From an uncultured Candidatus Saccharibacteria bacterium (GTDB taxonomy: Bacteria > Patescibacteriota > UBA1384 > 2-12-FULL-50-11), in contig CAZRED010000001.1 of NCBI GenBank assembly GCA_964599405.1, positions 75,528-139,527 of the forward strand: a DNA stretch of 64,000 nucleotides. The letters run 5' to 3'. The notes under the pieces are model-generated. The model ran no database searches and had not been told where the DNA came from. It saw nothing but the letters and a program-made list of their open reading frames with translations. Positions 25,935-42,274 of this stretch are shown here, piece after piece (the first letter of the stretch is position 1; the number at the start of each line of letters is the position of its first letter). A program made the translations under genes and the position numbers.

Positions 25935-26042
25935 GTTTCAATTGTATAGCAATTGGGGCATTGCTTGGTGGTCGGCAAACCGACCGCCATAGAAAAAGTG
26001 CGAAGGGCGGCGGCGCCCTTCGCACTGTGGGGGGGTGGTGGG

Positions 26043-26696: not shown

Positions 26697-26697
26697 G

Positions 26698-26760
26698 CTT
26701 AAAGAACCTCCATAAGGGTTGTACGAGCATCGTACTGGAAAATTTTTGCCAGGCAAGGAT
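26698..26760 (-). promoter_or_regulatory. palindrome GTACGAgcaTCGTAC upstream of 26043..26696
   Basis: Perfect 6-bp arms at about 26725-26739. Confidence 0.35.
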
Positions 26761-26853
26761 GGAGCTGGGATTTTTGCCTGTGTGAAACACAATTAGTAAT
26801 AAAAGGGCGCGGATTGGCCGAAGCCGCACCGCGCAATTGTTTGATATTGTCTG

Positions 26854-27498
26854 TTACTCCGGGACGCCCATGGCCAACCGCTGATCAGCGCAGCTCATGG
26901 TGCCGAAAGGAACACGCTTGAAGATCCAGCTCCCCAGCTTGCGAAGCGCCTCCCTGTCCAGATCGCTGATGAGGTCGCCCTTCTTGTCGCTTAAGGAGCG
27001 GGCTTGATGCCTGAGATCGCCTTTAGCGGCCCAGAGGCCAGGGAGATACCAGATCTCCCAGTATTGACCATTGTCGGCCCTTCTTGATCGAAGGCAGACG
27101 AATCCCCAGGATTCCAGCATTGAACAGGCCTCGGCGTATTTCCTCTCTGTCCAATAGTAACCGCAGAGGGACTGGATCATGATGGATGGAGAAGCGTGCT
27201 TGTTCTCCTTGTCAGGACAGACAAACCATGCCTCTTTTGGCTCGCCTGTCTCCTTCCAGTGCGGACCAACCAGCGGGTCGGCCTGGGGAGTGGGCATTGG
27301 CTCGGTTAGCTCGCGCCTGACAAGGCGTCCCTCAACGCAGTCGACACGACACTGTCCAGCGAGCATCGCTTCCAGCATGTCTAGCTCGTTACTGAGCAGA
27401 TTGCCTAGACCCAGCTCACCATCGTTGTCCACTGAAGGCTTCCTACGGGTTACGCGGATTTCTTTCATAAATACCTCAAAGATCGAAGATGGGAACAT
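26854..27498 (-). CDS. hypothetical protein (island gene)
   Basis: W/Y/C-rich; start uncertain (MFPSSIF or MKEIRV); no motif. Confidence 0.45.
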   Translation of the reverse strand: MFPSSIFEVFMKEIRVTRRKPSVDNDGELGLGNLLSNELDMLEAMLAGQCRVDCVEGRLVRRELTEPMPTPQADPLVGPHWKETGEPKEAWFVCPDKENKHASPSIMIQSLCGYYWTERKYAEACSMLESWGFVCLRSRRADNGQYWEIWYLPGLWAAKGDLRHQARSLSDKKGDLISDLDREALRKLGSWIFKRVPFGTMSCADQRLAMGVPE

Positions 27499-27569
27499 TC
27501 TATCAGATGTATCTAGAAAATCCAACGAGTAAATCCCGCTTTTACCTGTGGAAAAGTCAACGAACGGTA

Positions 27570-27600
27570 TAGAAAAAGCGGCGGGTTTCCCCGCCGCCAG
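27570..27600 (-). terminator. rho-independent terminator for 27625..28290
   Basis: Minus strand GGCGGCGGGgaaaCCCGCCGC then TTTTTCT. Confidence 0.75.
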
Positions 27601-27624
27601 TACATTGTTCGCTTAGGACTCGAA

Positions 27625-28290
27625 CTACTCCGCTTTGCGCATGACGACCATGTCGCAAGGGACTTTGATCCCAGTCCTCGATCCCTGCCAGCCGTCACCG
27701 CTCCAGATCGTTTCACCTTCCCAGTGGTGGTTGGGCACGTAGCAAGTGAAGCCTTCGCGGTGGTCATAGACAGCTACTCTCTGGTGAATGCTGCCCGACC
27801 ACTGGTCGGCCATCGCTTGGGGAACGCCGTCGTAGGTGACGACGATGCCCTTCTGGCAAAGTTGTCCGAGTGTGTTGAGCAGACGTTTCAGCCGCTCTGG
27901 CGAGAAGTAATACGTCACGCTGATCAGGACTGCCCAATCAACTCGACTTCCTTCCGCCAACATCGAAACACAGACATCGTCAGCTGGGCCATGATAGTAG
28001 CGGGCGTAAAATCCCCGTCCCATTGTCCAGCGCAGGTTGTTGGCCGAGATGTCGTTGGCGTAACGCTCGCCGTGGCGAGCATGTGCGCAGAGAATGTCGG
28101 CGACCACTCCTGTGGCTGAGCCAATATCTAAAACCGTATCTTGGGCACCGATGAACGGCACCGCCTTGTCTTCGAAGACTTGGTGGAGGTTCACCTTGGC
28201 CAGCTGCAAACGCTGGCAGTACTCCCTGGGGTCATTGTGAAGTGCGAGGACCGCTTGGTCCTCCATATTGAGGGGCCATCCGGTTACCAT
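27625..28290 (-). CDS. class I SAM-dependent methyltransferase (substrate unknown)
   Basis: VLDIGSATGVVADIL motif I; start moved to MVTGWPLNMEDQ directly after the promoter. Confidence 0.6.
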   Translation of the reverse strand: MVTGWPLNMEDQAVLALHNDPREYCQRLQLAKVNLHQVFEDKAVPFIGAQDTVLDIGSATGVVADILCAHARHGERYANDISANNLRWTMGRGFYARYYHGPADDVCVSMLAEGSRVDWAVLISVTYYFSPERLKRLLNTLGQLCQKGIVVTYDGVPQAMADQWSGSIHQRVAVYDHREGFTCYVPNHHWEGETIWSGDGWQGSRTGIKVPCDMVVMRKAE

Positions 28291-28326
28291 GTTGCGATTT
28301 ATACCACATTTCTCGAGAAAAGTCAA
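28288..28326 (-). promoter_or_regulatory. leaderless promoter cassette TTGACT-17-TATAAA-7 nt-ATG with XhoI-centred palindrome
   Basis: Minus strand: TTGACT (plus 28321-28326), TATAAA (plus 28298-28303), ATG at 28290. Palindrome TTTCTCGAGAAA. Confidence 0.6.
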
Positions 28327-28403
28327 GTATTAAAGCCGCAATTTCGCCAATGGAAAATCCAGCAAGAGTGACGGGGTAGCGGAAAATAATAATCACTGTT
28401 ACG

Positions 28404-28901
28404 TTGCGGTTAATGCCACAGAAGCTCGATCAATACCGCGACCCAATCCTGGCTACCAATGAAAAAGTGATCGGTTTTTACGAGCGCGAATTTTATGTTT
28501 TTTCTAATTTCTCTAGTTTCCAGGTGGAGTGGCGGGGACGGCTTTGGCCAACGTCTGAACACGCTTTCCAGGCCGCCCATTTTTTCGACACTGCGCCGGA
28601 GCTGGTTGAACAAATTTTTAATGCCCGTTCCGCCCACGATGCTTTTAAAATCGCTAAAGCCAACGGCGACAAAGCGCCGAAGAATTGGGAAGAAATCAAA
28701 GTTGGGATTATGGAAGATATCTGCCGCCACAAACTCCTGCAACACCCTTACGTCGAAAAGAAGCTCCGCCAAACCAAAGACTGGCCGCTCGTGGAAGACT
28801 CGCCGAGCGATCCTTGCTGGGGTTGGGGTAAAGACCGGAAAGGCCGTAACGAACTCGGCAAGGTTTGGATGCGTCTGCGCGACGAACTCAATAAAAAGTA
28901 A
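28404..28901 (+). CDS. NADAR-domain protein (YbiA/DUF1768-like)
   Basis: FYVFSNFS...WPTSEHAFQAAHFFD NADAR signature; 165 aa. Confidence 0.65.
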   Translation: MRLMPQKLDQYRDPILATNEKVIGFYEREFYVFSNFSSFQVEWRGRLWPTSEHAFQAAHFFDTAPELVEQIFNARSAHDAFKIAKANGDKAPKNWEEIKVGIMEDICRHKLLQHPYVEKKLRQTKDWPLVEDSPSDPCWGWGKDRKGRNELGKVWMRLRDELNKK

Positions 28902-28933
28902 TTTCCAGCGGGTGGATACAATAAGGTGGCGAA

Positions 28934-29341
28934 CTAGCTTTTAGAGTGATGTTCCAACCAGCTGGCAATTTCTGGTAGTGCTACTTGTTTGCTTGCTACT
29001 TTCATCACAAATTGTTCTGCTTCTTGATTGGAAGCTGTCAGCTTAAAACCGTTGATAAATAAAAACCGAGCAACGCTAGCCAAGCCGGTGCGTTTATTGC
29101 CGTCAACGAAGATTTGATACGCCGCAAAACTTTCCAGATAGGTCGCGGCTTTGAGAAAAACTGTCGGGAATTGTTCTTCACCAAATACCGCTGACTTTGG
29201 TCTTTCGGCAGTTGATAGAAATAAGTTCATATCACGGACACCATGAGATCCACCAACTTTTTCGATGATTTGGTGATGGATATACAATATCTCCTCGCCA
29301 GTCAGATAGCGCGCCTGGCGATTACTTTTTGGCAAGCTCAT
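28934..29341 (-). CDS. doc: Doc/Fic-family toxin
   Basis: FVDGNKRTG Fic/Doc motif; start moved to MSLPKSNRQARYL (ORF-track N-extension unlikely). Confidence 0.7.
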   Translation of the reverse strand: MSLPKSNRQARYLTGEEILYIHHQIIEKVGGSHGVRDMNLFLSTAERPKSAVFGEEQFPTVFLKAATYLESFAAYQIFVDGNKRTGLASVARFLFINGFKLTASNQEAEQFVMKVASKQVALPEIASWLEHHSKS

Positions 29342-29531
29342 CAAGTGCCGGTCGGTACTGGTCAATGAACTTATTTGTCCACTCGTGTAGCTCTGGGCTA
29401 ATGACAGTTTTGGCTGGTTTTTTGACGATAACCTCAACCTGGTCGCCCACGGTGACGTTCAGTTTTTTCAGCTCGCTTTTAGGAATAATTACTCCTGTTG
29501 AACTGCCGATCTTGATCAGTTTTTGAGTCAT
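29322..29531 (-). CDS. AbrB/MazE-fold antitoxin (Phd-like partner of Doc)
   Basis: MTQKLIKIGSSTGVIIPKSELKKLNVTVGD; 20-nt overlap with doc. Confidence 0.65.
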   Translation of the reverse strand: MTQKLIKIGSSTGVIIPKSELKKLNVTVGDQVEVIVKKPAKTVISPELHEWTNKFIDQYRPALDELAKK

Positions 29532-29565
29532 GTTTCGATTATAACTTTATAATAATAATCGTCAA
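29529..29565 (-). promoter_or_regulatory. leaderless promoter TTGACG-16-TATAAT-6 nt-ATG for the antitoxin gene
   Basis: Minus strand: TTGACG (plus 29560-29565), TATAAT (plus 29538-29543), ATG at 29531. Confidence 0.55.
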
Positions 29566-29666
29566 TGTGAAAAACTTCCGGCGGGTGGGGTTGAGGTGGA
29601 GGGGTTCATTTTTCGCTGTTTTTCGGTTATACTCTTCGCAACGCACTTTCAATTGGTAAAAAACAA

Positions 29667-30284
29667 ATGGACAGAAAATTCACTCAGACCGAGCTTGAAG
29701 AAGCTTTTCCGGTTTTATTCGGAGAAGTGACGAAGACATTTCACAACAACGCCCAGATCGACAACTGGCCACGCGCTCTGTGGCTGTTTTCATCTATAAT
29801 GATGTTCGCCGCATTTCTCATCTACTTGACTATAGTGCTTACGAAGCCGAATGCGGATATTTGGGATGTTGTCTTGGTTAATGGCACAGGCATTCTCACT
29901 GTATCCAGCTTCTTTTTGTTTCTGTTTGGTGACGAGGACACATCCAGTAAGCACTACCTGGAGCGGAAATACTTGCACCTGGTTGAAGACACCGAAGCAT
30001 ATGATCTTCTTCTGGAAGCGTTGAACAATCGGAAGAAAGGGGTTGTGAGGGGACTTGGTGGCAAGAAGAAAACGGAAGAATATCTGCGCAAGCTCTGGAT
30101 TACGGCGTTCGATGAGGCTAGGTTGCTGGTAGCGGAGCCAATCCTGGGTAAACCCGCAGAACAGCCGATTGCCGATCGCGTCAGGGAGCATCTCCAGCTA
30201 CACGACCAAGCACGCGAACAAGCGATAGACGAGGTTTACAACCGCTCACCGGAGGTTACCGATGACCTGCACCAACAGAACTAG
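29667..30284 (+). CDS. two-TM membrane protein with charged C-terminal domain
   Basis: 205 aa. Confidence 0.5.
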   Translation: MDRKFTQTELEEAFPVLFGEVTKTFHNNAQIDNWPRALWLFSSIMMFAAFLIYLTIVLTKPNADIWDVVLVNGTGILTVSSFFLFLFGDEDTSSKHYLERKYLHLVEDTEAYDLLLEALNNRKKGVVRGLGGKKKTEEYLRKLWITAFDEARLLVAEPILGKPAEQPIADRVREHLQLHDQAREQAIDEVYNRSPEVTDDLHQQN

Positions 30285-30401
30285 ACCTGGACCGCACGAC
30301 CTGAAAAGGTACGGCGGTTTTTTTCTTTTGCCTGTGGAAAAGCCCGCCCTGAGCTTGTCGAAGGGTCAACGGCCAGCGGGTGGGTTCATTATAAAATGTT
30401 T

Positions 30402-30432
30402 AGAGCCGCCCCATCGGGGCGGCTCTGTTTTG
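30402..30432 (+). terminator. rho-independent terminator
   Basis: AGAGCCGCCCCatcGGGGCGGCTCT then GTTTT. Confidence 0.8.
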
Positions 30433-30480
30433 CGCAGGATATTCACATAGGTTTGGATGTAAGCACGGGATCTATCGAGC

Positions 30481-31449
30481 TTAAACGGCTACCTCCTGGA
30501 AATCATGACAGGCAAAGACCTGTGTCTCGCCGTCACGGTTCAGGCAGGTGTCTTGAGCGCAATTTCGAGCGTCGCTCTCAATCGCCTCAATCATCTCGTC
30601 GGTGGCTCGCGGGTCGTGGTGCGTCAGTCCTAAGACTTTCGCTCCAATCTCGCAAGCTGTCCGAACACAGTAGTCTGGTGTGCCATGCCCATAGCCGGCT
30701 GTCTTGGTATTGTAGGTTTCGCGGTCGTACTGCGAATCCATCACCAAGAAATCGGCCTCCTTGAGGTGTGACTTCATTCGGGCAGGCATTTGGTCAAGAT
30801 TCTCGTGATCGGTTAGAAAAACGAAAACCTTACCTGTTGGTCGCTCTTCAAAACGATACGAAATCGTCCGTTCCGGGTGATTGGTGTAGTACATTCGCAC
30901 CACCAAACACTCGGAGATGTTGTAGTGGCCCCCTCTGATCTTGATTTGGCTCGGGGTCTTTCCCTGAACGCCATCAAGCTCCTCAATTGCCACTTTCTTC
31001 ATACCGCCCTCCGGGTGGAACACCAGGACAACAGCAGATGGAACTGTGATTCGGATCGGCCGAAATCGCTGCGCGATTTCGGTGAAGTTGACTGGGTGAA
31101 ACGGGGTGCGCATAACGTACTCGAAAGCCTTGCGAGGATCGTAACCCTCCTCGACCGGTCCGTAGACGTTAAAGCGCATCGATGGCGAGTAGATTGCTGG
31201 ACACAGCAGGAGCCCTTGAGTGTGATCGTGATGATAGTGAGTCATCAACAGATGTGTCTCGGTGATCTTTTCCTTAAGCAGCTGGTCTCCGAGTGGAAAC
31301 AAGCCGCTACCGGCATCAATCACGAGGGCGTTGTCCAGCGGTAGACATTGCGACTCAACCCGCAAGCAGGTGGTGTTACCACCGTACTTGAGAAAGTCTT
31401 GGCCGCTAACGGGGATTGAACCCCTGGTTCCGTAGAAGGTGATCTTCAT
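30481..31449 (-). CDS. MBL-fold metallo-hydrolase
   Basis: THYHHDH metal-binding motif; 322 aa; GGAG SD. Confidence 0.7.
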   Translation of the reverse strand: MKITFYGTRGSIPVSGQDFLKYGGNTTCLRVESQCLPLDNALVIDAGSGLFPLGDQLLKEKITETHLLMTHYHHDHTQGLLLCPAIYSPSMRFNVYGPVEEGYDPRKAFEYVMRTPFHPVNFTEIAQRFRPIRITVPSAVVLVFHPEGGMKKVAIEELDGVQGKTPSQIKIRGGHYNISECLVVRMYYTNHPERTISYRFEERPTGKVFVFLTDHENLDQMPARMKSHLKEADFLVMDSQYDRETYNTKTAGYGHGTPDYCVRTACEIGAKVLGLTHHDPRATDEMIEAIESDARNCAQDTCLNRDGETQVFACHDFQEVAV

Positions 31450-31582
31450 GGTTTTCTCCGTCGCGTCTTACAGCAACCAAAGAGCCATGTGAAGGTGCGC
31501 AATTCGCCGCAAGTATATACCTTAAAAACAGGAATAACTATGAAAACTTACAAAAATAACGACGGGTGGGGTTGAAGTATAG

Positions 31583-31610
31583 AAAAAGCGGCGGGGAAAA
31601 CCCGCCGCAA
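31583..31610 (-). terminator. rho-independent terminator for 31630..32016
   Basis: Minus strand GCGGCGGGttttCCCCGCCGC then TTTTTCT. Confidence 0.75.
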
Positions 31611-31629
31611 TTCGAATGCTGCCTGCAGT

Positions 31630-32016
31630 TCAGTCCAGAAGCCTGAACTCGACGTCAAAGTCGTGCCGAACACTCCCCACGAACCCGACCAGCTTGAGTT
31701 TCCCGTCTGCATCCAGCCGTATGCGCATGGATGTTAGCTTGTCGTCAAACTCCTTTCCCACTGACATGAGCGGTTCGGTAACAGGTGTGATGGTGACGAA
31801 GTGGGGCCTGTCCTCATCAGGAGGATTGGCGGAAACAGACGCGATCGTTCCATAGAGCTCACACGGCAGATGGGTTCTTGGCTTTCCGTATCTGTTGTAT
31901 ATCTCCATGTGGAACTTTTTGCCGATTAGATCCTCAGGCATCAGACCGTCAAACTTGTCAGAAACAAGCTTTCTAGTCAGAGCCACCGATCCTTTATCAG
32001 AAAGTACGCTGAGCAT
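31630..32016 (-). CDS. hypothetical protein (island gene)
   Basis: Start moved to MLSVLSDKGS; the ORF-track TTG start coincides with the -35 TTGACT. Confidence 0.5.
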   Translation of the reverse strand: MLSVLSDKGSVALTRKLVSDKFDGLMPEDLIGKKFHMEIYNRYGKPRTHLPCELYGTIASVSANPPDEDRPHFVTITPVTEPLMSVGKEFDDKLTSMRIRLDADGKLKLVGFVGSVRHDFDVEFRLLD

Positions 32017-32052
32017 ACTGCGAAATATATTACTTTTCTCGAGAAAAGTCAA
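32014..32052 (-). promoter_or_regulatory. second copy of leaderless promoter cassette TTGACT-17-TATATT-7 nt-ATG with XhoI-centred palindrome
   Basis: Minus strand: TTGACT (plus 32047-32052), TATATT (plus 32024-32029), ATG at 32016. Near-identical to 28288-28326. Confidence 0.6.
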
Positions 32053-32096
32053 GGGTTAGAACCGCAATTTTGCCTGTGGAAAAGTCGTTGTCTAAC

Positions 32097-32126
32097 CTTG
32101 ACTTTTTCTTGGTTTACAGGTATAAT
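32097..32126 (+). promoter_or_regulatory. sigma70-like promoter TTGACT-17-TATAAT for 32142..32375
   Basis: cTTGACTttttcttggtttacaggTATAAT. Confidence 0.65.
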
Positions 32127-32141
32127 TCTCTCGTCACTTAG

Positions 32142-32375
32142 GTGGCTGGAGGAAGTGTGAGAACCCTAACAATCATCGCGTCGCACGACGAACAAACCGA
32201 GTACTTGCACAACGTCTTAAAAGAAGGCGGCTGCAATACCTTTCCGGAATACGAGGGTGAATGTCCAAGCTGCAAAAACATCCTCAGATCCAACCTTACT
32301 GAAGTTAACTGCCCTGGTTTTGGTTGCGATGGTCTTGAGCCAGTCAGACTGGAACACAAACACAGATTCGGCTAG
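32142..32375 (+). CDS. small zinc-ribbon protein
   Basis: 77 aa, GTG start; CPSC...CPGFGC. Confidence 0.45.
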   Translation: MAGGSVRTLTIIASHDEQTEYLHNVLKEGGCNTFPEYEGECPSCKNILRSNLTEVNCPGFGCDGLEPVRLEHKHRFG

Positions 32376-32390
32376 AGCAACTTCTTGAAC

Positions 32391-32425
32391 GGGCGCGGCG
32401 AAAGCCGCGCCCTTCTCTTTTTCTG
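32391..32425 (+). terminator. rho-independent terminator
   Basis: GGGCGCGGCgaaaGCCGCGCCC then TTCTCTTTTTCT. Confidence 0.8.
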
Positions 32426-32445
32426 TAAAAAAGCCAATCTCACAG

Positions 32446-32465
32446 ATATACGTTAAAACATATAC
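32446..32465. promoter_or_regulatory. variant copy of ATATACGTTTAAACATATAT palindrome
   Basis: ATATACGTTAAAACATATAC. Confidence 0.45.
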
Positions 32466-32525
32466 GAGGGGTTAGAAGATAAAGTAAAAACCGTGAATGA
32501 CCCATACGCCCGGGTTGTTCGTCTT

Positions 32526-33305
32526 TTATGGTCGGAGAGTCCCGGCAAAGACCTGCCAGGCCAGTAAGCTCTTGGCGACAAGTGAAAGAATAATATACGC
32601 CCGTTCGCCGTAGAGATAATCCGCCCATTTACCGATCTTTTTGTACTGGAGGGTCATATTGATAGCAAAACAGTTGAAGAAAACGAAGATCGAAACGTAA
32701 ATCCAGTAAACAAACGTTGGGATATCGCCGGAGCCGTAGCGACTAGCCGCCCAAAACCAAATTGCCACCACCAACCACGGGATTACCCCGGCAAACGTCC
32801 CCAACTTAAAGGCCAACCAATTGGGTTTTTGGCCGCTCTCTAATGTGCCTTGGTTGTATATTTCCATTGCCAGGCCAGTGAGATTCATGATTGCCACTAA
32901 GGCAAAAATCATCAGCAAACTCGTCAGGTCATAGATCCCCACCAACATAGCAATGGCCACCATCATGACTGAAGCCGAGACGCTGTACTCCCACCACCGG
33001 GCCTTATTGACGCCCCTAAGCAGGTTGGCGTTGTAACTGCGATTGTAAACAGTGGCAATAATCAGGTGGGCCAGGGCGGAGATTGCCAGAAATCCCGCTA
33101 CCAGCCAGACCAGAGGCATATTAAACAGTGTCTCACTAGCTGGGATCAGCGATTGGCTAGCGATATCAAAGCGCAAGAAACCGACATTAACCGGCAAGGA
33201 AAAATCAGCGCTCAAATATACAATCGCCGCCGCCTGCAGTGCATGCAGCAGTGCCATAACCAAATTGAACTTACGTAGCTTTGCTAATCTAACGTCTTGC
33301 TCCAT
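32526..33305 (-). CDS. heliorhodopsin (7-TM retinal protein)
   Basis: Full-length collinearity with heliorhodopsin: FNLVMALLHALQ, RWWEYSVSASVMMV (E counterion), GVIPW, KWADYLYGERAYIILSLVAKSLLAWQ (Schiff-base Lys). Confidence 0.8.
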   Translation of the reverse strand: MEQDVRLAKLRKFNLVMALLHALQAAAIVYLSADFSLPVNVGFLRFDIASQSLIPASETLFNMPLVWLVAGFLAISALAHLIIATVYNRSYNANLLRGVNKARWWEYSVSASVMMVAIAMLVGIYDLTSLLMIFALVAIMNLTGLAMEIYNQGTLESGQKPNWLAFKLGTFAGVIPWLVVAIWFWAASRYGSGDIPTFVYWIYVSIFVFFNCFAINMTLQYKKIGKWADYLYGERAYIILSLVAKSLLAWQVFAGTLRP

Positions 33306-33484
33306 CGCCCCTCCTCCATTTATTTAACGATACCGCAATCCGCCAACGCAACAAGCAATATCAAACCAAACGCTAGGCAGGGAGTGGAATTTCTCTTTAG
33401 TTAGTTGGTTAGTTCGGGTTTTTCTTCTATGTGTTTGTCAGTAGTCATTATGGTGTTCTAGCAGTATTAGCGAAGCGTCAGAGT

Positions 33485-34000
33485 TAGAAAGTTAGTTATA
33501 TATTTATAAAGAACTCCCCTTTTTCCATTTCCATACCTTAAAGATAGTCATATTTTGGTGCAACTGCTGCACCAGTTCAAAGCCGGGGTTACAAAGCTTA
33601 GTTATATATTTATAGAGACTCCACTTTGGCGATTGTACTTACCTGTTAGAGCGATCTTTTTTGTCTCAGCTGCTGAGACGTTTTGTTAGATGAAACTAAT
33701 GAGTACTAAGTGGTGTAGATATGTATAGAAAGTGTAGTGATTTTTATTGATGAAGCTGTGAATGTCTTGGAAGTGGTATCAGGCCGGATGTTTCTTAGTA
33801 TATATATTAATAAAGACTCTACTTTTTCTTTCAGTTAACCAGGAAATTGAACGAATTTAGGAGCAACAGCTGCTCTTTTTGGGTAGCGAAGCCGAACATT
33901 AGCAGGGGGTCAGTAATATATATAAAGAGTAGTGAATTTTGTTTACTAAACCTGCAAAGATCGGCTTTTCGGTATCAGGCCTGATACCGGTGTCTCCAGG
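33485..34000 (+). repeat. tandem array of 5 degenerate ~105-bp units, each with AT-rich TATAAAG box and downstream hairpin
   Basis: TATA(A/G)AG boxes at 33505, 33611, 33723, 33809, 33921. Hairpins 50-52 nt downstream: GGTGCAactgcTGCACC (33557), GTCTCAGCtgcTGAGAC+GTTTTG (33663), GAGCAacagcTGCTC+TTTTTG (33859), GGTATCAGGccTGATACC (33972). Confidence 0.6.
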
Positions 34001-34153
34001 TAATTAATTGGCGTGCAGTGACGGTATACTTACGAAATAAATCGCTACTCCAACCGCCGCCAGAATTATCGCTACCCACCAAACTGGATTCATGGTTTTA
34101 GTTTAGCAAAAACGGTAGTACCCAACGAATAATCGCTTGTATAGTGGAAGAGT

Positions 34154-35884
34154 CTACGTAGTATCAGTAAAACATACGTTGTAGATCTCGTCGCCCAAAT
34201 CTTTCCAATGACTAGATTTATAATTGAAGGTTTCCGTGGAGAAATCTATTTTTCCAGAAAGTTTACTAAAGCCCTTATCATAGTAAGCGAAGCCATTCAC
34301 CTTATTATTCTCGATCAATATACGCATACAATGAATCAAGCCAGTAATCGTAGTCACGGTCAGCGCTCGGCTAACCTTCTGCTTAGTGGTCCACATATCG
34401 TTCGGTATTTGGTTCTTGAATGCTTTAAGAAACTCATTTATTTCTTTAGTGCAAAATTCTACGTATTCATTTAATAGGGCAGTATCTTTACCGTCTCTAA
34501 GCTCACTCTTTTTCCCTTCACTCCAAACATTAAAAAGCGTGTCCTTCCCTGAAAGCTTAACTACGTGCCTTACTCCGTAGGAAACTATAGATGTTGTTTT
34601 TAGCTTACCCTTGTCGAAAAAGTGTCTTTCGAGAACTTTATCCATTGGGTCAAGCTCAGCAAGTTTATTCATTACCTTCTTGGCTATAGATACCTCGTCG
34701 AACGGATTTACTATTGTATTAATTACTTGACGGAGAGACCCACTGGTTCTTGTCTGTCTATCATTAATTTCTAAAAATAGCTTCGCTTCAAACCTTCCTC
34801 GGTCTTCGAGAGATAGGTCGCTAGGGAAGACAATACCCGTAATCAAAAGGTGCTGCTTATCTCTTAAACTACTAATGTGCGTGTCATGTGCATCATCACC
34901 TTCATGGTATGAAAATACCCTATGTTGTCCGTCGATAATCCCAATGTTCCCGGCAACCTTTGGGATCCTAATTTTTATAGGATCCTTCATTACCCCTGTA
35001 CTTATTGGGAGATTTATCCGGTCGTTACTTTCATACTCAAGAAGTTGTAAGTCATTAGGTAAAGAGACGATGATATTATTTACGAATACCCGACCCTCAC
35101 TAGCAAGGTACTTACGCATATTACGTATTTTGTTACCGAGGATAATTCTTTGATAAACAAAGTCACTATCTTGCCAACCATCCCTTCTCAGTACATAAGC
35201 TTGCTTTAATAAGGTGTTTGGGTCAATTAGAAAAGATACCAGGTTATGCCCACTTGGAAAGCCACTCGGAGTTTCTGGAAGAATAAGGCCAACATAATCA
35301 TCCCCCGGAGAGCCGCTATTCTGTGGCCCTATCTCCTCAAATCCAACCCCGATAAATTTAAATAGTTCGAATCTTGCAGATCTTTTAATCGTTTTTGAGA
35401 GGCTTAAGAAATAACTACGTGACTTGTAATCCATAAAATGAAGGTGCTGATAACGATCTCTAAGTGACTGAGTTACCTCTTCGTGCGAAACATATAAGAA
35501 TGCTAACTTAATATCATGACTAGCGTAGCCCGCGGTAGAATTTTTCCCGTAATTTGGGATTTTGCTCTTAAAAAGCTCAATTAAGTCATTTTGGTTGTTC
35601 TTGCAGTTAGTAAAGAACTCAGCTTTCTTCCGAAGGTGATCAGTATCACTTGTTGTAGTATCCTCTACGATAAGAATAAGGTTCTCGAAAACAAAAACAT
35701 TATCTAGATCGCTTTCTTGTCCACATAGATTAATTTTAAAGTCTTCGGCGACTGCCATAAATCCCATATTGCTAAAGGTAGTGCGTACGTCCCTTCTAAT
35801 TTTTCTCTTAAGGCCTAATCTTTCACTGTCTGATAGGTTAGGCATATTATTTATTGTCTTGATGCATAATTCTCTTATACCCAA
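34154..35884 (-). CDS. DGQHR-domain (DndB-like, ParB/Srx fold) protein
   Basis: GIIDGQHRV at aa 318-322, codons verified at 34919-34933. 576 aa with about 220 aa N-terminal domain of unknown function. Overlaps upstream MTase stop. Confidence 0.7.
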   Translation of the reverse strand: MGIRELCIKTINNMPNLSDSERLGLKRKIRRDVRTTFSNMGFMAVAEDFKINLCGQESDLDNVFVFENLILIVEDTTTSDTDHLRKKAEFFTNCKNNQNDLIELFKSKIPNYGKNSTAGYASHDIKLAFLYVSHEEVTQSLRDRYQHLHFMDYKSRSYFLSLSKTIKRSARFELFKFIGVGFEEIGPQNSGSPGDDYVGLILPETPSGFPSGHNLVSFLIDPNTLLKQAYVLRRDGWQDSDFVYQRIILGNKIRNMRKYLASEGRVFVNNIIVSLPNDLQLLEYESNDRINLPISTGVMKDPIKIRIPKVAGNIGIIDGQHRVFSYHEGDDAHDTHISSLRDKQHLLITGIVFPSDLSLEDRGRFEAKLFLEINDRQTRTSGSLRQVINTIVNPFDEVSIAKKVMNKLAELDPMDKVLERHFFDKGKLKTTSIVSYGVRHVVKLSGKDTLFNVWSEGKKSELRDGKDTALLNEYVEFCTKEINEFLKAFKNQIPNDMWTTKQKVSRALTVTTITGLIHCMRILIENNKVNGFAYYDKGFSKLSGKIDFSTETFNYKSSHWKDLGDEIYNVCFTDTT

Positions 35885-36770
35885 ACTTCAAATATTTTTT
35901 ATTAAGCTCTGCCCCCACTGAGTTTCTGCCCTGCTTTTCGGCAGCGACAGAGGTAGTAAACGTACCAGCGAAGGGGTCGAAAATCGTATCTCCCTTATTG
36001 CTACTCACTTTTATAAAGAGCTCTAGCAAATTCAGTGGCAGTTGGCATGGATGGTCTTTCTCCTTCAGCTCGCCCGGCTCCATGGACCGAAACTTATTTC
36101 CAAGGTTCCGAACTCGATCCTTGGAATTATTCTTCATCATGTGCATATCTATAGTATCGATTAGGCCATCTTGTAGCTCTATCAGATCAAGGAACCTTAA
36201 TAAGTCGTATGAGGTTCTGCCCTTAGATCCTTCTGCGATACGTTTCCGTACTACTGGCGCGGTTGGATTTTTATAGTGCTGTACTAAATTTTCTCTATTG
36301 AAGACATAGCCCTTCGTTGACTTAGTAAAAAATAAAACAGACCTCTGGCTTCGCGTATAATTATTTTTTGAATGCCCAATATTTGTGGGGTAGTGCCATG
36401 TAATCCATCTCCGGTAATTAAGACCTAGCTCATCTTGAAGATAGGGCAGAAGGCGGGCATTAATCTCGGGGTAACTAATTAGGTAGAAGCTCCCCTTGTC
36501 ACTTAAGATTCTTGGGATATCGCGCAATTTGGCTTCTAGCCAGGCATAATACTCCTTCCAGGACTTGGAGTCGTCAAAGCTACCATAGTCGAGCCCCATA
36601 TTGTAGGGAGGATCCGTAATAATGAGGTCTATACTTTTACTAGGGATCTGACTGATTATCTGTTCGCAATCACCTAGCACGAGGATGTGTCCTGTTTTTT
36701 CTTTCTCAATAAAGTCAAAGGCAAAGCCTTGCTTGCTTATAGGTTTGAGGATAGATTTTATATTCCTCAT
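35847..36770 (-). CDS. DNA methyltransferase (beta class, DPPY; N4-C or N6-A)
   Basis: LIITDPPYNMG motif IV, N6_N4_Mtase-like; 307 aa. Confidence 0.75.
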   Translation of the reverse strand: MRNIKSILKPISKQGFAFDFIEKEKTGHILVLGDCEQIISQIPSKSIDLIITDPPYNMGLDYGSFDDSKSWKEYYAWLEAKLRDIPRILSDKGSFYLISYPEINARLLPYLQDELGLNYRRWITWHYPTNIGHSKNNYTRSQRSVLFFTKSTKGYVFNRENLVQHYKNPTAPVVRKRIAEGSKGRTSYDLLRFLDLIELQDGLIDTIDMHMMKNNSKDRVRNLGNKFRSMEPGELKEKDHPCQLPLNLLELFIKVSSNKGDTIFDPFAGTFTTSVAAEKQGRNSVGAELNKKYLKFGYKRIMHQDNK

Positions 36771-36807
36771 AAGCCTATTCTATACAAATATTCTCGAAAA
36801 GAAGTGA

Positions 36808-37899
36808 CTATTTTTTGCCTTTGCGGCGGTTATCGTCGCGGCAGAGCATTTGGCAGTTATCGGCATTAGTTTTTCCGCCCTCAACCCACGGCGTAATGTG
36901 GTCGGCTTCCATTTCTTCAATCTCAAAATGTTTACCACAATCCGGACAAACACCTTTCTGTCGTTCAAAGGCCTCGCGTTTCATGTTATCGGTAAACGCC
37001 CGAATATTTAGACACTTTTCTTCACGGGTTAGAACATATTCATAGATACCGGACTTTTTTGTTACGTCTTCGTCCATCATCAACTGTGTAACTTCCGCTT
37101 CCAGCTTGTCGGTATCGAACTTATCGTCCTTAAATTGATTGTAAAATCTGCCCCAATCCAAACCTTTCATTTCTTTTCGATACTTCGGAAAAGTCAGACG
37201 TGTCCAGCTTATAACATTTTGGAAGTACGACCAAAGCTCATTGGCATTTTGGTCGTGTTGGTGCTTGGCCATGTAGTCTTCTATTTTTCCGTCGTTAATC
37301 CAAGCTAGCGTAGTTTCCAGTATCTCTTGCCGAATTGGCGAACCGTTCACTAGCTGCCCGCCATCGCTAGCTAGCAAATAAGCTGCACAGTTAGATTTGC
37401 TGAATTTCAGTTTGGCGTCACTTAGCCATGGTCCAGTATAAATCGCATTGCGGAGCTCTTGGTCGGTTAATTTTTCGCCAGCGATGTTAATGATTCTGAA
37501 CCAATCCAGTCTTTCTTTGTCGGTGCCTTCGCACCAGTAAATCATCAGCTCATAGTCCTGAATTTGCTTCTGTTCCTCATCAGTTAGGTTGTGGAAAAAG
37601 CGATCTTTGAGCGAAAAATCACCGTTGACATATTGCCCAATACTTATTGTTCGTTGCTGGCCGTCCATAACTTCAAAGTTCCCTTGGTCGGTTTTGACCC
37701 AATACATTACGTTCAGCGGAAAACCATTTTTAATCGTTTCTATTACTGCGTCGCGCTGCTTGTCTTTATAAACAAATTCACGTTGGTATCTTGGGCGGAT
37801 GTCGAGTTTACCACCGTAAGCTATGACGCCTTCCTCGGCGCTGTCTTTGTAGCCGACGATCACTTCTCGAACAGGAATTCGTTGTAGTTCAATTTTCAT
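36808..37899 (-). CDS. DUF262 (DGQQR NTPase-like, ParB fold) + HNH endonuclease; SspE/GmrSD-like
   Basis: VMDGQQRTISIGQY (codons verified at 37651-37665). C-terminal CPDCGKHF...ADHITPW...NADNCQMLCRDDNRRKG HNH. Confidence 0.75.
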   Translation of the reverse strand: MKIELQRIPVREVIVGYKDSAEEGVIAYGGKLDIRPRYQREFVYKDKQRDAVIETIKNGFPLNVMYWVKTDQGNFEVMDGQQRTISIGQYVNGDFSLKDRFFHNLTDEEQKQIQDYELMIYWCEGTDKERLDWFRIINIAGEKLTDQELRNAIYTGPWLSDAKLKFSKSNCAAYLLASDGGQLVNGSPIRQEILETTLAWINDGKIEDYMAKHQHDQNANELWSYFQNVISWTRLTFPKYRKEMKGLDWGRFYNQFKDDKFDTDKLEAEVTQLMMDEDVTKKSGIYEYVLTREEKCLNIRAFTDNMKREAFERQKGVCPDCGKHFEIEEMEADHITPWVEGGKTNADNCQMLCRDDNRRKGKK

Positions 37900-38983
37900 T
37901 TTGTGTCCTTTTCCTTTGCTTAATTATTATTCTTGCGTATGTCGCTTTGCCGTTGATGATAGCGCCTACATATTTTTTATGCTGTTCATCAAGATATGTT
38001 GGATTCCCTTGTATTAACGAGTCTGACTTCTCTCTCTTGTCTGCAAATAAGCCAATAATTTCAAACTGTTGGGGGTTATATTTATCTAGAAAAGTAATCG
38101 GAACACCCATTGCACCATTCCAATCCATAGGTACGTCTGCAAACTTAGAAACCTCTATCGCATCATAATTGTCGTATTTTGGATATTCTTCAGGCGTGTA
38201 TTTTTTATACAAGTCTACCTCCTCGTGACGCTTGGTGGTGTCAAGGTTTGTGAACCATACTATGCTTCCCATACTGATGTATTTGATGCCATTCTCGATT
38301 TTCTTTCTTGATTCGGTCGGGATATCGTAATCATCAGGAACTTGGAACCACTTTGTGCCACCATTATCATATCCAAGCCACATTTTATTTTCTTTAATAA
38401 GTTTGAAGGTCTCTTTATACGTGATGGCATTCTGGTTACCAAGAATCAAAAACTTTTTATCATATTCCATAAGCTGCGCCACATACTCGCGAAACAATGA
38501 AAACGGCGGGTTTGTCACTACGATATCGGCTTCTTTGAGCAGCTCTATACACTCATGACTTCTAAAATCACCGTTGCCTTGTAAGGACGATGAAGTATTT
38601 TTAGTGTGCTTTATAAGATTCTGAACATCACCCAAATCTACAGCGCCATCACCATCACTGTCAGGCACTTCGTTTACTTCGACTTTAAATGGTTGCTTAC
38701 CATCTGGCTTTAGACCCTCCATCTCGAAGATTGGCAACTGCGTTCCAGCAATAGGCGATTTAGTGTAGCTGGTGGCGATAAGTTTTTTTAAGCCCAAATG
38801 GTTAAAGCTGCTCGCAAAATACTTGAAAAAATTACTCTCATACGGATCGTCACAATTACAAAAAACAACCTTGCTGCGGAATTGATCTTTGTATCGCGTT
38901 AACTCTTTTTCGATATCAGCACGTTGTGTGTAAAACTCGTCCTTTTTCTGCAACTTTGCTGTATGTAAATTATTCTGCGCCAT
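37889..38983 (-). CDS. N6-adenine DNA methyltransferase (NPPF motif)
   Basis: IVVTNPPFSLF motif IV; 364 aa; TAATG coupling with upstream small ORF. Confidence 0.7.
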   Translation of the reverse strand: MAQNNLHTAKLQKKDEFYTQRADIEKELTRYKDQFRSKVVFCNCDDPYESNFFKYFASSFNHLGLKKLIATSYTKSPIAGTQLPIFEMEGLKPDGKQPFKVEVNEVPDSDGDGAVDLGDVQNLIKHTKNTSSSLQGNGDFRSHECIELLKEADIVVTNPPFSLFREYVAQLMEYDKKFLILGNQNAITYKETFKLIKENKMWLGYDNGGTKWFQVPDDYDIPTESRKKIENGIKYISMGSIVWFTNLDTTKRHEEVDLYKKYTPEEYPKYDNYDAIEVSKFADVPMDWNGAMGVPITFLDKYNPQQFEIIGLFADKREKSDSLIQGNPTYLDEQHKKYVGAIINGKATYARIIIKQRKRTQNEN

Positions 38984-39252
38984 TAAATTAGCCGGGTGTT
39001 TTTGAGCTTTGCTAGGTAGCTAAAGTCATCTTCTGATATTTTGGGCACAACATTGAACGTTATTTTCGTTTTTGATGTGTCGCTTATTGCACCGCCTAAT
39101 ACTACAAAGTATTTTATCTCTCCCTTAGCTTCTTTTGTTGATTCAACTTCTACCTCAACTTTTATCGCACCCCAAACTACACCGTTCTTAAGATTATTGA
39201 TAAGTTCGTTGGTGAGATTCTCAATGTAAGATGAAAGCTCAACTTTCTCCAT
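38983..39252 (-). CDS. small operon-leading protein of unknown function
   Basis: 89 aa; its stop overlaps the MTase start (TAATG). Confidence 0.45.
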   Translation of the reverse strand: MEKVELSSYIENLTNELINNLKNGVVWGAIKVEVEVESTKEAKGEIKYFVVLGGAISDTSKTKITFNVVPKISEDDFSYLAKLKNTRLI

Positions 39253-39289
39253 TTGCCAAATTCTACTCTTTTTAACCTGAAAAAGCCAG

Positions 39290-39330
39290 GTTTGGGGAAC
39301 AACCCACCCCGGGTGGGTTGTTCAGGGGCT
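39290..39330 (-). terminator. tandem hairpins between HEPN-like gene and defense operon (attenuator/terminator)
   Basis: CAACCCACCccgGGTGGGTTG and AACCTGgctttttCAGGTT. Confidence 0.4.
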
Positions 39331-39408
39331 ATGGTCGCGCGGGACAGATTTGGTCACGGTAGATCGGGTAAATCAACTAATAACATTCTTGCATATGGAA
39401 GGGATTAA

Positions 39409-40131
39409 TTATCTTTTTTTGAATTTTTTACAATTGCAACCATCCGTTAAGCATTCTACAAAAAGAATATTTTTCCCCTTCATTACGAAATGAGCAGCTT
39501 TTGCATGACCGCAGTCACAGATAGCAAACAGACCCTTTTTCCTGCCGAATTCTACTACTTCCTCATTAGATACAACACCATAAGTTTTCGCGAAACTTCT
39601 TTCACTTCTAGAATTAATCTTCTTTGATGCGAGATATTCAACTTTTACCTCTATGCCGTTATCTATCCTGCTCTTTGTCATTCCGTAACCAGTAGCAACT
39701 TGTTTGTCTTCCAATGATTTATTTATCTTATTTAACTCTTGAAAAATCTTTTCGTACCGTGAACATGCCAAACCAAGATGGGAATACTCTATTTCGCTAG
39801 TAAAAAACCTGTGGATTGCCTTATTCCTGACATCATAGAGTTTATTCAGCTCGTCATATATTGATCGGGTGATAATTTTTTTCTCATATGCTAATTGATA
39901 AATTATCCTCTCTGACAAGTAATCGTTTCCTTCTTGAAAAATATATTTCTCAGTAATTCTGTTGGTTTTTTCTTCTAGCTGTTGCTCTAAAACTAGACAA
40001 ATCCGACACTGTGCTTCGACTAGAGAAGAATACAATACCAACCCCTCTATTAACGAGCCATTATCATAAGCCTTATTGAGCAGTAACCTTGTTGCAGCAA
40101 ATGCGGAAATAAAGTTTTCTAACTTTTTCAT
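39409..40131 (-). CDS. HEPN-like (Rx4H) protein with C-terminal Cys-rich zinc ribbon
   Basis: DVRNKAIHR Rx4H motif; C-terminal CDCGH...CLTDGCNC; 240 aa. Starts 23 nt after the dnaK stop. Confidence 0.45.
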   Translation of the reverse strand: MKKLENFISAFAATRLLLNKAYDNGSLIEGLVLYSSLVEAQCRICLVLEQQLEEKTNRITEKYIFQEGNDYLSERIIYQLAYEKKIITRSIYDELNKLYDVRNKAIHRFFTSEIEYSHLGLACSRYEKIFQELNKINKSLEDKQVATGYGMTKSRIDNGIEVKVEYLASKKINSRSERSFAKTYGVVSNEEVVEFGRKKGLFAICDCGHAKAAHFVMKGKNILFVECLTDGCNCKKFKKR

Positions 40132-40142
40132 TTACCCAAGAG

Positions 40143-40162
40143 AAAGAGAGCTGGTTAGCTCT
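40143..40162 (-). terminator. weak hairpin overlapping dnaK stop (partial terminator, read-through likely)
   Basis: AGAGAGCTggttAGCTCTCT followed on the minus strand by TTCTCTT then ATG of the HEPN-like gene. Confidence 0.35.
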
Positions 40163-42107
40163 CTTTCTTGTCTTCTCCTTTATTTTCTTCTTTTGGTTCG
40201 TCCTCTTTTGGAGGTTGCTCGGCCGATCCGCCAGCTGGCGGAGTATCAGGCGAGGCCGGAGGGGTTTCCCCACCCTTTGGCTCGTCCTTAGTTTCAGAAT
40301 AGGCGGCGGATCCGACTTTTTGGAGGGCGGTGGAGAGTTTTTCGGCTTCCGCGCTAATTTTCTCTTTATCGTCACCAGGGAGGACGCCGCGAACGGCGGT
40401 GATAGCGTCTTCGACCTCCCGCTTGTCGTCCGGTTTTACTTTATCGCCCAAATCTTTCAGGGATTTTTCGGCGGTGTGGATGAGCCCTTCGGCCAAGTTG
40501 CGGGTTTCGACCAGCTCTTTTTTCTTAGCGTCGTCGGCCGCGTGTTTTTCGGCTTCGGCTTTCATCTTCTCTACTTCCTCATCCGACAGGCCGCTGGAAG
40601 CGGTGATGGTGATTTTCTGCTCTTTACCGGTGGCTTTGTCTTTAGCCGAGACGTTCAAGATGCCATTTGCATCAATGTCGAACGTAACCTCAACTTGCGG
40701 AACGCCTCGGGGAGCGGGCGGAATGCCGTCGAGCATAAATTTGCCGAGCGTCCGGTTGTCGCTGGCCATGGGCCGTTCGCCTTGGAGAACGTGGACTTCC
40801 ACCGAAGTCTGGTTGTCAGCGGCGGTGGAGAAGGTTTCGGTTTTGCTGGTGGGGATAGTGGTGTTGCGGGTAATCAGCGCCGTCATGACACCGCCGAGAG
40901 TTTCCAAGCCAAGAGTGAGCGGAGTAACGTCGAGCAGCAGAATATCTTTGACTTCGCCGGATAATACGCCGCCCTGGAGAGCCGCGCCAAGCGCTACCGC
41001 TTCGTCCGGGTTAACGCCTTTGCCTGGCTCTTTGCCAAAAACATCCTTTACGATTTGCTGAATTAACGGCATGCGGGTCATCCCACCGACAAGGATTACT
41101 TCGTCGACGTCGCCTTTGGAGAGCTTGGCGTCTTTGAGAGCCGCTTCGGCAATCGGACCGGTTTTTTTAATCAGGTCGCCGACGAGCGCTTCCAGTTTGG
41201 CTCGGCTTAAGTTCATTACTAAGTTCTTTGGACCGTCGGCATCAGCGGAGATAAACGGCAGGTTAATCTCGGATTCCTGGGTAGTGGAGAGCTCGATCTT
41301 GGCTTTTTCGGCTCCTTCTTTGATGCGCTGCATCGCCATAGCGTCACCACGTAGATCCACGCCTTCTTTAGTTTTAAATTCTTCGACAATCCAATCCATC
41401 AAGCGCAGGTCAATATCGTCACCGCCCAAGTGGGTGTCGCCGTTAGTGGAGAGTACTTCGAAGCTGGACTCGCCGTCGGCTTCGCCGACTTCTATAATGG
41501 TGATATCAAAGGTACCGCCACCGAAGTCATAAACAGCGATTTTTTGGTCTTTTTTGTCTTCTTTACCCAAGCCATAAGCCAGAGCGGCGGCAGTTGGTTC
41601 GTTGATAATGCGTTTAACCTCTAAACCAGCGATCTTACCGGCATCTTTAGTGGCTTGGCGCTGGGAGTCGGTAAAGTAAGCCGGGACGGTAATCACCGCT
41701 CCGTCAACTTTTTCGCCCAAGTAACTTTCGGCGTCAGCTTTAATTTTCGAGAGGATCATCGCCGAGACTTCTTGCGGAGAGTATTCGGCATCGCCCATCT
41801 TGACTTTGACGCCTTCGCCGCCTTTAACGATTTTGTACGGCATTAGCTTGATGTCGCGTTGAACTTCTTCGTCTTCAAACTTGCGGCCAATAAGGCGCTT
41901 AACCGAGTAAACGGTATTTTCCGGATTAGTAACGGCTTGGCGCTTGGCGAGTTGGCCAACGAGGCGTTCACCCTTTTTGTTAAACGCGACAATGGATGGA
42001 ATGAGGTTACCCCCTTCGGCAGAAGGGATCATTTTGGCTTTGCCGCCTTCCATAACGGCGACGGCTGAGTTGGTAGTTCCTAAGTCAATTCCGATGATTT
42101 TAGGCAT
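40155..42107 (-). CDS. dnaK: molecular chaperone DnaK (Hsp70)
   Basis: [22 protein letters not shown], full-length 650 aa; SD AAGGGGT. Confidence 0.95.
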
Positions 42108-42202
42108 TTGTACCCCTTGTGCCTAAGATTACCGAAGCTTTGCTTTGTATGATTTTTCCCATTTTTTGTATGCCTCCTTGAGATTTTGATTACCTAAAAA
42201 GT

Positions 42203-42219
42203 GTAAAGTTTCCTTTACA
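42203..42219 (-). promoter_or_regulatory. TGTAAAG-N4-CTTTACA palindrome in dnaK promoter (candidate heat-shock operator)
   Basis: TGTAAAGtttcCTTTACA between TTGACA (-35, plus 42223-42228) and the -10 region; same palindrome at 24109-24126 upstream of dnaJ. Confidence 0.55.
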
Positions 42220-42274
42220 TATTGTCAAGAAATAATGCTCTAGATAGTTGATTACTGTTTAATCACTTGCTAGT

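Follow-up and report, generated by a model that had tools for sequence, protein, structure and literature searches.

A HEPN-family gene with a Cys/His module between two native hairpins downstream of dnaK in a Berkelbacteria-like genome

HEPN-superfamily toxins include the HepT components of MntA-HepT systems (HEPN-MNT, type VII; Shewanella oneidensis SO_3166, PDB 5yep, 6m6u, 7bxo), and other HEPN effectors are linked to reverse transcriptases (RTs). The UG13b group of RTs has been predicted to be defensive (Mestre et al. 2022, PMC9226505), and the passages of that study on UG13 and HEPN give no partner for it, HEPN included. As regards transcription, it has been found in Escherichia coli that the ribosome ending translation at a stop codon all but abolishes the action of a terminator situated a few base pairs beyond (Li et al. 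2016, PMC4824070). The subject of the present analysis is a gene for a 240-amino-acid protein with a HEPN-like domain and a Cys/His module, here called HEPN-Zn, which lies directly downstream of dnaK in a window of 64,000 nucleotides (the whole stretch of DNA analysed; GCA_964599405.1, contig CAZRED010000001.1, positions 75,528-139,527 of the forward strand) from a Berkelbacteria-like genome of the Patescibacteria. The reading put forward, to which a probability of about 0.6 is given, is that a horizontally acquired, promoterless gene lies between two hairpins native to the dnaK locus and is expressed by read-through from dnaK. Sequences used for comparison are referred to by handles such as L092.

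The HEPN-Zn gene and its flanking hairpins

In this window dnaK (40155..42107, minus strand) is a native core gene for a 650-residue HSP70 protein, with 82-90% amino acid identity to Berkelbacteria-like and other Patescibacteria DnaK, and it ends in a TAA stop codon at 40157-40155. The HEPN-Zn open reading frame (ORF; 39409..40131) lies on the same strand, and its ATG follows the dnaK stop by 23 nucleotides (40154-40132), just as an initial annotation of this DNA had reported. The start codon is fixed, because an in-frame TAA abuts the ATG and homologues become alignable from residue 3. A DnaK-HEPN fusion protein arising by read-through of the stop codon was considered and rejected: the two frames differ, and the in-frame extension of dnaK amounts to just 8 codons. 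The G+C content of dnaK is 0.53 (0.58 at third codon positions) and that of the HEPN-Zn ORF is 0.35 (0.34), the local value falling from about 0.55 to about 0.35 exactly at the dnaK stop.

The last four codons of dnaK (KKES) and the stop codon make up the 5' arm and loop of a terminator-type hairpin, hairpin 1 (AGAAAGAGAGCU-AACC-AGCUCUCUUUCU; 40141..40168, minus strand), in whose apex and loop the stop UAA (40157-40155) is placed, and which has a U-rich tail, UUUCUCUU. The 8-base-pair hairpin overlapping the stop and followed by TTCTCTT that had been noticed earlier is its core (40164-40145), made up of AGAGAGCT (40164-40157), the loop AACC and AGCTCTCT (40152-40145); as RNA the core arms read AGAGAGCU/AGCUCUCU, and further A:U pairs lengthen the stem to 12 base pairs (40168..40141). 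Its calculated free energy is -17.1 kcal/mol for the 12-base-pair form and -10.8 kcal/mol for the core, and an 81-nucleotide fold that contains it has z = -2.66 against shuffled sequences. The stem of 8-12 base pairs has 4-5 G-C pairs and the tail has 6 U in 8; a consensus terminator scan did not report this hairpin. After the core come UUCUCUU, GGGUAA and then the AUG of the HEPN-Zn gene. Orthologous hairpins are present 3' of dnaK in L092, L098, L008, L095/96, L007 and L009, and RNAalifold, applied to seven hairpin 1 sequences, gives 12 pairs of which 7 have compensatory changes. Because homologous hairpins are conserved with covariation in seven lineages, hairpin 1 is more than a chance structure at a gene junction, and on this comparative evidence it is probably the conserved dnaK terminator of the clade.

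The closest relative, L092, offers an empty site. Its DnaK is 90% identical in amino acid sequence, and its DNA aligns at 82.5% nucleotide identity up to position 40141 of the window, where the alignment ends; it resumes at 39323..39256 with a local alignment score of 49, to be compared with 29 +/- 4 (maximum 43) for shuffled sequences. Between these limits lies a maximal single-gene insert of about 817 nucleotides (39324..40140, minus strand). Its upstream edge consists of the nine nucleotides CUUGGGUAA (40132..40140, minus strand) between hairpin 1 and the ATG, with a weak GGG resembling a Shine-Dalgarno (SD) sequence and the in-frame TAA. Beyond its downstream edge, 3' of the HEPN-Zn gene, stands a second native hairpin, GC-rich and of 12 base pairs (hairpin 2, GAACAACCCACC-CGG-GGUGGGUUGUUC; 39297..39323, minus strand), which is unique in the window and has a homologue in L092 that is likewise GC-rich (GAACGACCCACC...GGGTCGTTC) and differs from it by a G-C to A-U compensatory change. 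In L092 hairpins 1 and 2 are just 10 nucleotides apart (TCAAAGTGAC). The segment that follows hairpin 2 (AACCUG...UAAAAAGAGUAGAAUUUGG; 39256..39296, minus strand), which includes a TAGAAT 7 nucleotides before the next ATG, is also native and shared with L092. A global MAFFT alignment of the window with L092 misplaced hairpin 2, and local alignment with shuffling controls was used instead.

Base composition and the mobility of the family favour an insertion in the window over a deletion in L092. The initial annotation had seen in this junction a functional fusion to dnaK; what is found is a foreign insert of about 817 nucleotides, missing from L092 and with unconserved linkage, and dnaK is not a neighbour in any of about ten other contexts of the family that were examined. 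The ends of the insert were searched for target-site duplications and inverted repeats, and the short matches obtained did not exceed chance; TCAAAGTGAC is not recognisably duplicated, and no known recombination site was found there. An integron cassette was rejected as the source, since hairpin 2, judged by eye, is unlike the core sites of attC (GTTRRRY / RYYYAAC) and is native, being present in the empty site. Among Rfam families, a search of 39200-40250 gave only a chance miRNA match (E = 0.42), and a search of the whole window gave tRNAs only.

The HEPN-Zn protein and its relatives

The HEPN-Zn protein is laid out as a HEPN helical bundle (residues about 1-150), a linker (151-195) and a Cys/His module (196-240). 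The bundle carries the catalytic-type HEPN motif Rx4H as R102-N-K-A-I-H107 (codons at 39811..39828, minus strand). In an alignment of 100 sequences of the family R43, E74, R102, N103 and H107 are invariant, which amounts to the R-N-x3-H signature of HEPN with two more charged residues, and the R, N and H of the motif are invariant also in a second alignment of 24 sequences. Across the 100 family members, matches to Pfam at E <= 0.01 are to HepT-like in 42 and to RiboL-PSP-HEPN in 14 (best E 4e-5), with minor matches to NTase_sub_bind (5), DUF4145 (2) and HepT-like_2 (1). A profile search of the PDB returned HepT toxins as its only matches (E about 0.6), aligned on the motif. Two AlphaFold models were made, the second from 24 sequences and with a predicted local distance difference test (pLDDT) score of 82-98 over residues 1-150; with both, Foldseek placed HepT/HEPN toxins on top, at probabilities of 0.93-1.0 and template modelling (TM) scores of up to 0.71, and with the second the top 14 PDB matches were all HepT/HEPN proteins (TM, on the target, 0.51-0.71). 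The Foldseek alignments, like those of the profiles, bring the HepT motif onto RNKAIH, so that the motif falls within a predicted HEPN fold. By sequence and by model, then, the 240-residue protein is a member of the HEPN superfamily with a four-helix, HepT-like N-terminal domain, and the conserved motif makes it probably a metal-independent endoribonuclease.

The C-terminal module, C205-x-C207-x-H209-x-K-x2-H214...C227-x4-C232-x-C234 (codons at 39430..39519, minus strand), is putatively zinc-binding. Its family form is C-x(1-2)-C-x-H-x-K-x2-H...C-x4-C-x-C, and in 11 diverse homologues of the zinc form, with 30-50% identity, neither the seven Cys/His ligands nor the Lys vary. These 45 C-terminal residues are poorly modelled (pLDDT 40-55). 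The module probably binds zinc and nucleic acid. The description of the ORF as HEPN-like with a zinc ribbon is thus borne out in its HEPN fold and its invariant Cys/His module, 'ribbon' being a term taken from the motif only.

A word-indexed search yielded only three relatives, and an exhaustive profile search 275 representative clusters, in which three architectures can be told apart: stand-alone proteins of about 190 residues, proteins of about 330 residues with an N-terminal extension, and proteins of 240-300 residues with the C-terminal Cys/His module, as in the window. The exact window protein is confined to one cluster of one member. The analysis thereby assigns both a fold and a likely activity to a family known only from uncultured lineages, for which NCBIfam, PHROGs and PADLOC hold no covering model and Pfam no curated one. 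At the protein level, sequenced plasmids and phages gave no match. A PADLOC match of the window protein to Cas7c (E = 3e-4, over 52 residues) was treated as spurious.

The closest full-length homologues (47-49% identity) are encoded by the third gene of UG13b RT operons, with spacers of 4-8 nucleotides between genes. The order in these operons is RT (441 amino acids; RT_UG13b in PADLOC, E = 1.5e-153), a protein of 382-384 amino acids that has an RNLYAH motif and a faint match to Csx1_HEPN, HEPN-Zn (264 amino acids) and an acidic peptide of 37 amino acids (MDEEKERQKEIKEKLE...ELADLL); the four-gene operon was seen in L085:64-3480, L086:1-2514, L087 and L088. There is a short, merely suggestive likeness between CUUGGGUAA at the edge of the insert and the ...GATTGGTAAaaatATG that ends the upstream gene in these operons. 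In two independent contigs the HEPN-Zn gene comes directly after a gene for a UvrD/GajB-like helicase (spacer 1-16 nucleotides); one of these copies lies on a conjugative element, and in the other contig the pair lies amid SNF2 and Eco57I-type methylase genes, followed by genes for SNase and NYN nucleases. Other copies stand beside restriction-modification systems of MmeI or Eco57I type, one is on an integrase-bearing element adjoining a DpnII system and another HEPN gene, and a few are solitary amid housekeeping genes. From these settings the family is, as far as gene order tells, a component of defence islands and usually a downstream, promoterless member of an operon.

A further observation concerns two unrelated contigs (L179:7001-10130 and L183:5035-9252), in which an SNase-domain protein is encoded after HEPN-Zn and an NYN-domain protein a few genes beyond that, with a UvrD helicase 5' in L183; this arrangement may be an undescribed multi-nuclease defence operon.

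Transcription from dnaK and its alternatives

It had been stated earlier that the HEPN-Zn gene has no recognisable promoter and no strong SD sequence, and this is upheld. A promoter scan, limited to the sigma-70 consensus in a phylum whose own promoter consensus is poorly known, found no site reaching 9/12 matches on the minus strand of 40132-40960, and the SD-like element is GGG only, 3 nucleotides from the ATG; for comparison, the SD of dnaK is merely GGGG, and several genes of this host have no SD at all. The gene cannot have a promoter of its own in the inserted DNA, since only 9 nucleotides lie between hairpin 1 and the ATG, and for the same reason read-through is the only visible route to its expression. 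The sole candidate source of transcription into it is a promoter-like site upstream of dnaK, TTGACA-17-TACACT (42200..42228, minus strand; 10/12 matches in the sigma-70 scan), where a block of 33 nucleotides is 97% identical to L092 in a spacer that has otherwise diverged. Expression of HEPN-Zn thus probably depends on read-through from dnaK. Whether it would also follow heat shock, as was first supposed, is another matter. A CIRCE inverted repeat (TTAGCACTC-N9-GAGTGCTAA) has no match with <=3 mismatches anywhere in the 64 kb, so that heat-shock induction of this dnaK is an assumption, and the claim finds no support in the sequence; such a coupling would be interesting if true, and is at present a possibility.

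Just 5' of dnaK (42099-42161, minus strand), a strong GGAGG SD sequence precedes an upstream ORF of 20 codons, whose stop overlaps the dnaK ATG and whose peptide is similar to the DnaK N-terminus; it may be a leader peptide or the relic of a duplicated start.

To rank the hairpins, a terminator score of the d'Aubenton-Carafa type was used, which takes account of hairpin energy per length and of a weighted U-tract; its formula is calibrated on E. coli, and the values serve as a ranking only. Hairpin 1 of the window scores -8.1, the lowest among the orthologues scored (L098 -3.7, L008 +2.9, L096 +3.3, L007 +32.7, L009 +35.5). The stem energies are -31 in L009, -28.7 in L007, -18.6 in L098, -16.6 in L008 and -13.7 in L092. 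The geometry also varies. In the window, as in L092, the dnaK frame enters the hairpin and ends within its loop; in L098 and L008 the hairpin starts 13 nucleotides past the dnaK stop. Hairpin 1 has the lowest score in the set, and its loop holds the stop codon, a position that in E. coli nearly does away with intrinsic termination (PMC4824070); 'leaky' is thus a plausible description of it, and the early suggestion of a weak terminator is in keeping with these results. The weakness of hairpin 1 and the position of the stop would also explain why this sub-lineage has a second, much stronger hairpin; the terminator score of hairpin 2 is -14 in the window and +2.9 in L092.

The following course of events can be proposed. 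Horizontal transfer would have brought a promoterless copy of HEPN-Zn, as a single-gene insert of about 0.8 kb, to a hotspot behind dnaK. RNA polymerases coming from upstream, most likely from the dnaK promoter, would pass hairpin 1 into the HEPN-Zn gene, the folding of hairpin 1 being hindered by the ribosome that terminates on dnaK, because the 5' arm is coding and the stop sits in the loop. Translational coupling is likely, given an ATG 23 nucleotides past the stop and 9 past the stem: ribosomes that had just opened the stem while finishing dnaK might go on to start HEPN-Zn. Hairpin 2 may serve as the 3' end or as a stabiliser of the transcript.

Several points weigh against this account. 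At -17.1 kcal/mol hairpin 1 matches the stability of the orthologous hairpins in L008 and L098 (-16.6 and -18.6), each of which is the only hairpin after dnaK and so presumably terminates. In the window, hairpin 2 is not followed by a U-tract. The analogy with E. coli may not hold in Patescibacteria, where ribosome-polymerase coupling and the rules of termination could differ. Unregulated supply of a HEPN toxin from a very strong promoter could be expected to harm the cell, and this would argue either that termination is efficient or that the protein is inactive or latent. As to the protein, it stays below the gathering score of every Pfam HEPN model (the best, HEPN_RiboL-PSP, has E = 0.012 and 16 bits against a cut-off of 28.4), and the Foldseek E-values are marginal (0.016-0.4). 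The polarity of the insertion, finally, is deduced and not proven.

The main rival takes the equal stability of the hairpins at face value: hairpin 1 would terminate efficiently, given that in L008 and L098 orthologues of that stability act as the only terminator of dnaK, and HEPN-Zn would be an orphaned effector torn from a defence operon, essentially unexpressed and decaying. Its operon partners, namely the UG13b RT, the 382-384-residue protein, the 37-residue peptide and the UvrD helicase, are indeed all missing from the window, and the exact protein is limited to a single-member cluster. The ORF is intact, however, with every invariant catalytic and Cys/His residue kept; the family members that stand alone amid housekeeping genes imply that a solitary copy can be viable; and the stop-in-loop geometry predicts leakiness by the E. 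coli precedent (PMC4824070). This explanation is regarded as unlikely. Quite unlikely, in our estimate, is a more ambitious version of the read-through model, in which the dnaK 3' end is a selected expression dock: toxin or defence cassettes without promoters would be captured just past a terminator kept leaky on purpose, their dose would follow transcription of the chaperone gene, and the strong hairpin 2 would close the unit. What speaks for it is a second case: in L008 (JALHMV010000001.1) a gene for a 160-residue PF05168 HEPN protein (11947-12429, plus strand; 22.9 bits against a 22-bit cut-off) begins 9 nucleotides after the orthologous dnaK hairpin, matching the geometry in the window. 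Homology of this protein to HEPN-Zn was examined by profile comparison (hhalign) and rejected at a probability of 0.3%, so that two independent HEPN families occupy the same position, which with n = 2 is suggestive. If true, the model would couple an RNase-based dormancy or abortive infection to proteotoxic or phage-induced stress.

Independent expression would require a non-consensus promoter, placed either within the dnaK 3' end or across hairpin 1. The poorly known consensus and the single pattern scanned leave room for one, and there is a GAAAAT hexamer at about 40183-40178; yet the scan was negative, any transcript starting upstream of 40168 must still cross hairpin 1, the 9 nucleotides between hairpin and ATG are too short for a promoter, and a leaderless start is itself unlikely, the TCTCTT at -12 to -7 being unlike a -10 box. 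This makes an independent promoter very unlikely. Scarcely credible is the idea that HEPN-Zn forms a toxin-antitoxin or effector pair with the next gene downstream, which encodes an 89-residue, Trypco2-like protein (38983-39252). The two genes are on the same strand, 156 nucleotides apart, and the 89-residue protein has a weak match, below the Pfam cut-off, to the conflict-system domain Trypco2 (E = 2.7e-4). But hairpin 2 and 39256-39296, native DNA common to L092, which has neither gene, separate them, and on this ground the pairing was rejected; moreover, the 89-residue gene overlaps the start of an EcoRI-type methylase gene and so belongs to that operon, and in the homologue contexts examined there is no neighbour resembling it and no adjacent antitoxin of MNT type. 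Acquisition followed by expression through dnaK read-through remains the preferred reading. The arrangement seems to have come about by chance insertion at a hotspot and does not look like a conserved design, and a regulatory purpose of the dnaK-HEPN-Zn arrangement is unlikely to be conserved.

The dnaK 3' flank and comparison with known systems

The synteny comEC-grpE-dnaK is kept upstream in Berkelbacteria-like genomes and is not kept downstream of dnaK. Across relatives, the genes 3' of dnaK encode Fic; Bro-N; the unrelated PF05168 HEPN; GmrSD with type I restriction-modification; type I restriction-modification with DUF4062; and unknown proteins. In the window, core synteny resumes at about 25.9 kb, with a membrane protein gene (25278-25934), leaving a variable tract of 14 kb (25900-40150) that contains HEPN-Zn, two methylases, a GmrSD_N/HNH endonuclease, a DGQHR/DndB-DpdB-like protein, a heliorhodopsin, a protein of metallo-beta-lactamase fold and Fic/Doc. 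This comparison marks the dnaK 3' region as a hotspot of accessory genes in the Berkelbacteria-like lineage. Because the native segment 39256..39296 divides them, HEPN-Zn and the neighbouring restriction-modification island were separate acquisitions. The EcoRI-type methylase and the GmrSD_N/HNH 'type II REase' form a pair (36808-38983, minus strand) that is found also 3' of dnaK in L095/L096, with 65-87% amino acid identity and with other small ORFs ahead of it; this recurrence points to a module that is older, or is exchanged at the locus, independently of the HEPN-Zn insert.

Further features of the tract were noted in passing. The gene for the 89-residue Trypco2-like protein has the TAGAAT 7 nucleotides before its ATG and no SD sequence (39253-39270, minus strand), which suggests a leaderless or near-leaderless transcript; the segment is conserved in L092, with TATAGA as the counterpart. 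Between the DndB-like and heliorhodopsin genes (33400-34000) there is a non-coding tract of about 850 nucleotides with 37% G+C, containing four copies of an AT-rich motif of about 25 nucleotides (TATATATTTATAAAGAC/ACTC, at 33497, 33603, 33801 and 33916) and a 15-nucleotide inverted repeat (33775/33974); the whole-window search assigned it to no Rfam family at gathering score. The heliorhodopsin gene itself (32526-33305, minus strand; PF18761 by the L004 annotation) has a strong ribosome-binding site, GGAGGAGG, and lies at the edge of the low-GC island.

The locus provides a clean case, controlled by an empty site, of a tiny-genome, symbiont-type bacterium gaining a single promoterless gene in the terminator region of a core gene, and it draws attention to the dnaK 3' flank as a hotspot for defence genes in Berkelbacteria-like genomes. 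Among the contexts examined, HEPN-Zn stands behind dnaK in this genome only, and the family itself, with its association with UG13b and UvrD, is a more durable result than the linkage to dnaK: it supplies effector candidates for a predicted and uncharacterised defence system.

Of the systems already described, the stop-codon-weakened intrinsic terminators (PMC4824070) resemble the window in the stop inside the hairpin loop, the weak stem and the promoterless next gene; their principle comes from tR2 in E. coli, whereas the present case is read from sequence in Patescibacteria. Gabija-like operons, with their UvrD helicase of GajB type, have in common with two of the homologous contigs a helicase directly 5' of HEPN-Zn; these contigs differ in that no GajA/OLD ATPase-nuclease was detected and the partners are unknown proteins, SNase and NYN, and the window is without the helicase. 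The HepT toxins, the best structural and profile matches, share with HEPN-Zn a helical bundle with R-x4-H on the corresponding helix. They differ in that the HEPN-Zn domain is longer (about 150 residues against about 130), has the additional invariant R43 and E74 and is joined to a C-terminal Cys/His module, in a sequence identity of just 15-17%, and in that an MNT nucleotidyltransferase antitoxin gene is adjacent neither to HEPN-Zn in the window nor to any homologue examined. Compared with the UG13b systems, the window copy is solitary, lacking the RT, the 382-384-residue partner and the 37-residue peptide, and has dnaK as its upstream gene; its closest full-length homologues are RT-operon members, and other HEPN effectors attached to defence RTs are covered in the study cited above (the C-terminal HEPN domain of AbiA, the HEPN-like genes associated with UG22 and UG19, and type IX retrons; PMC9226505).

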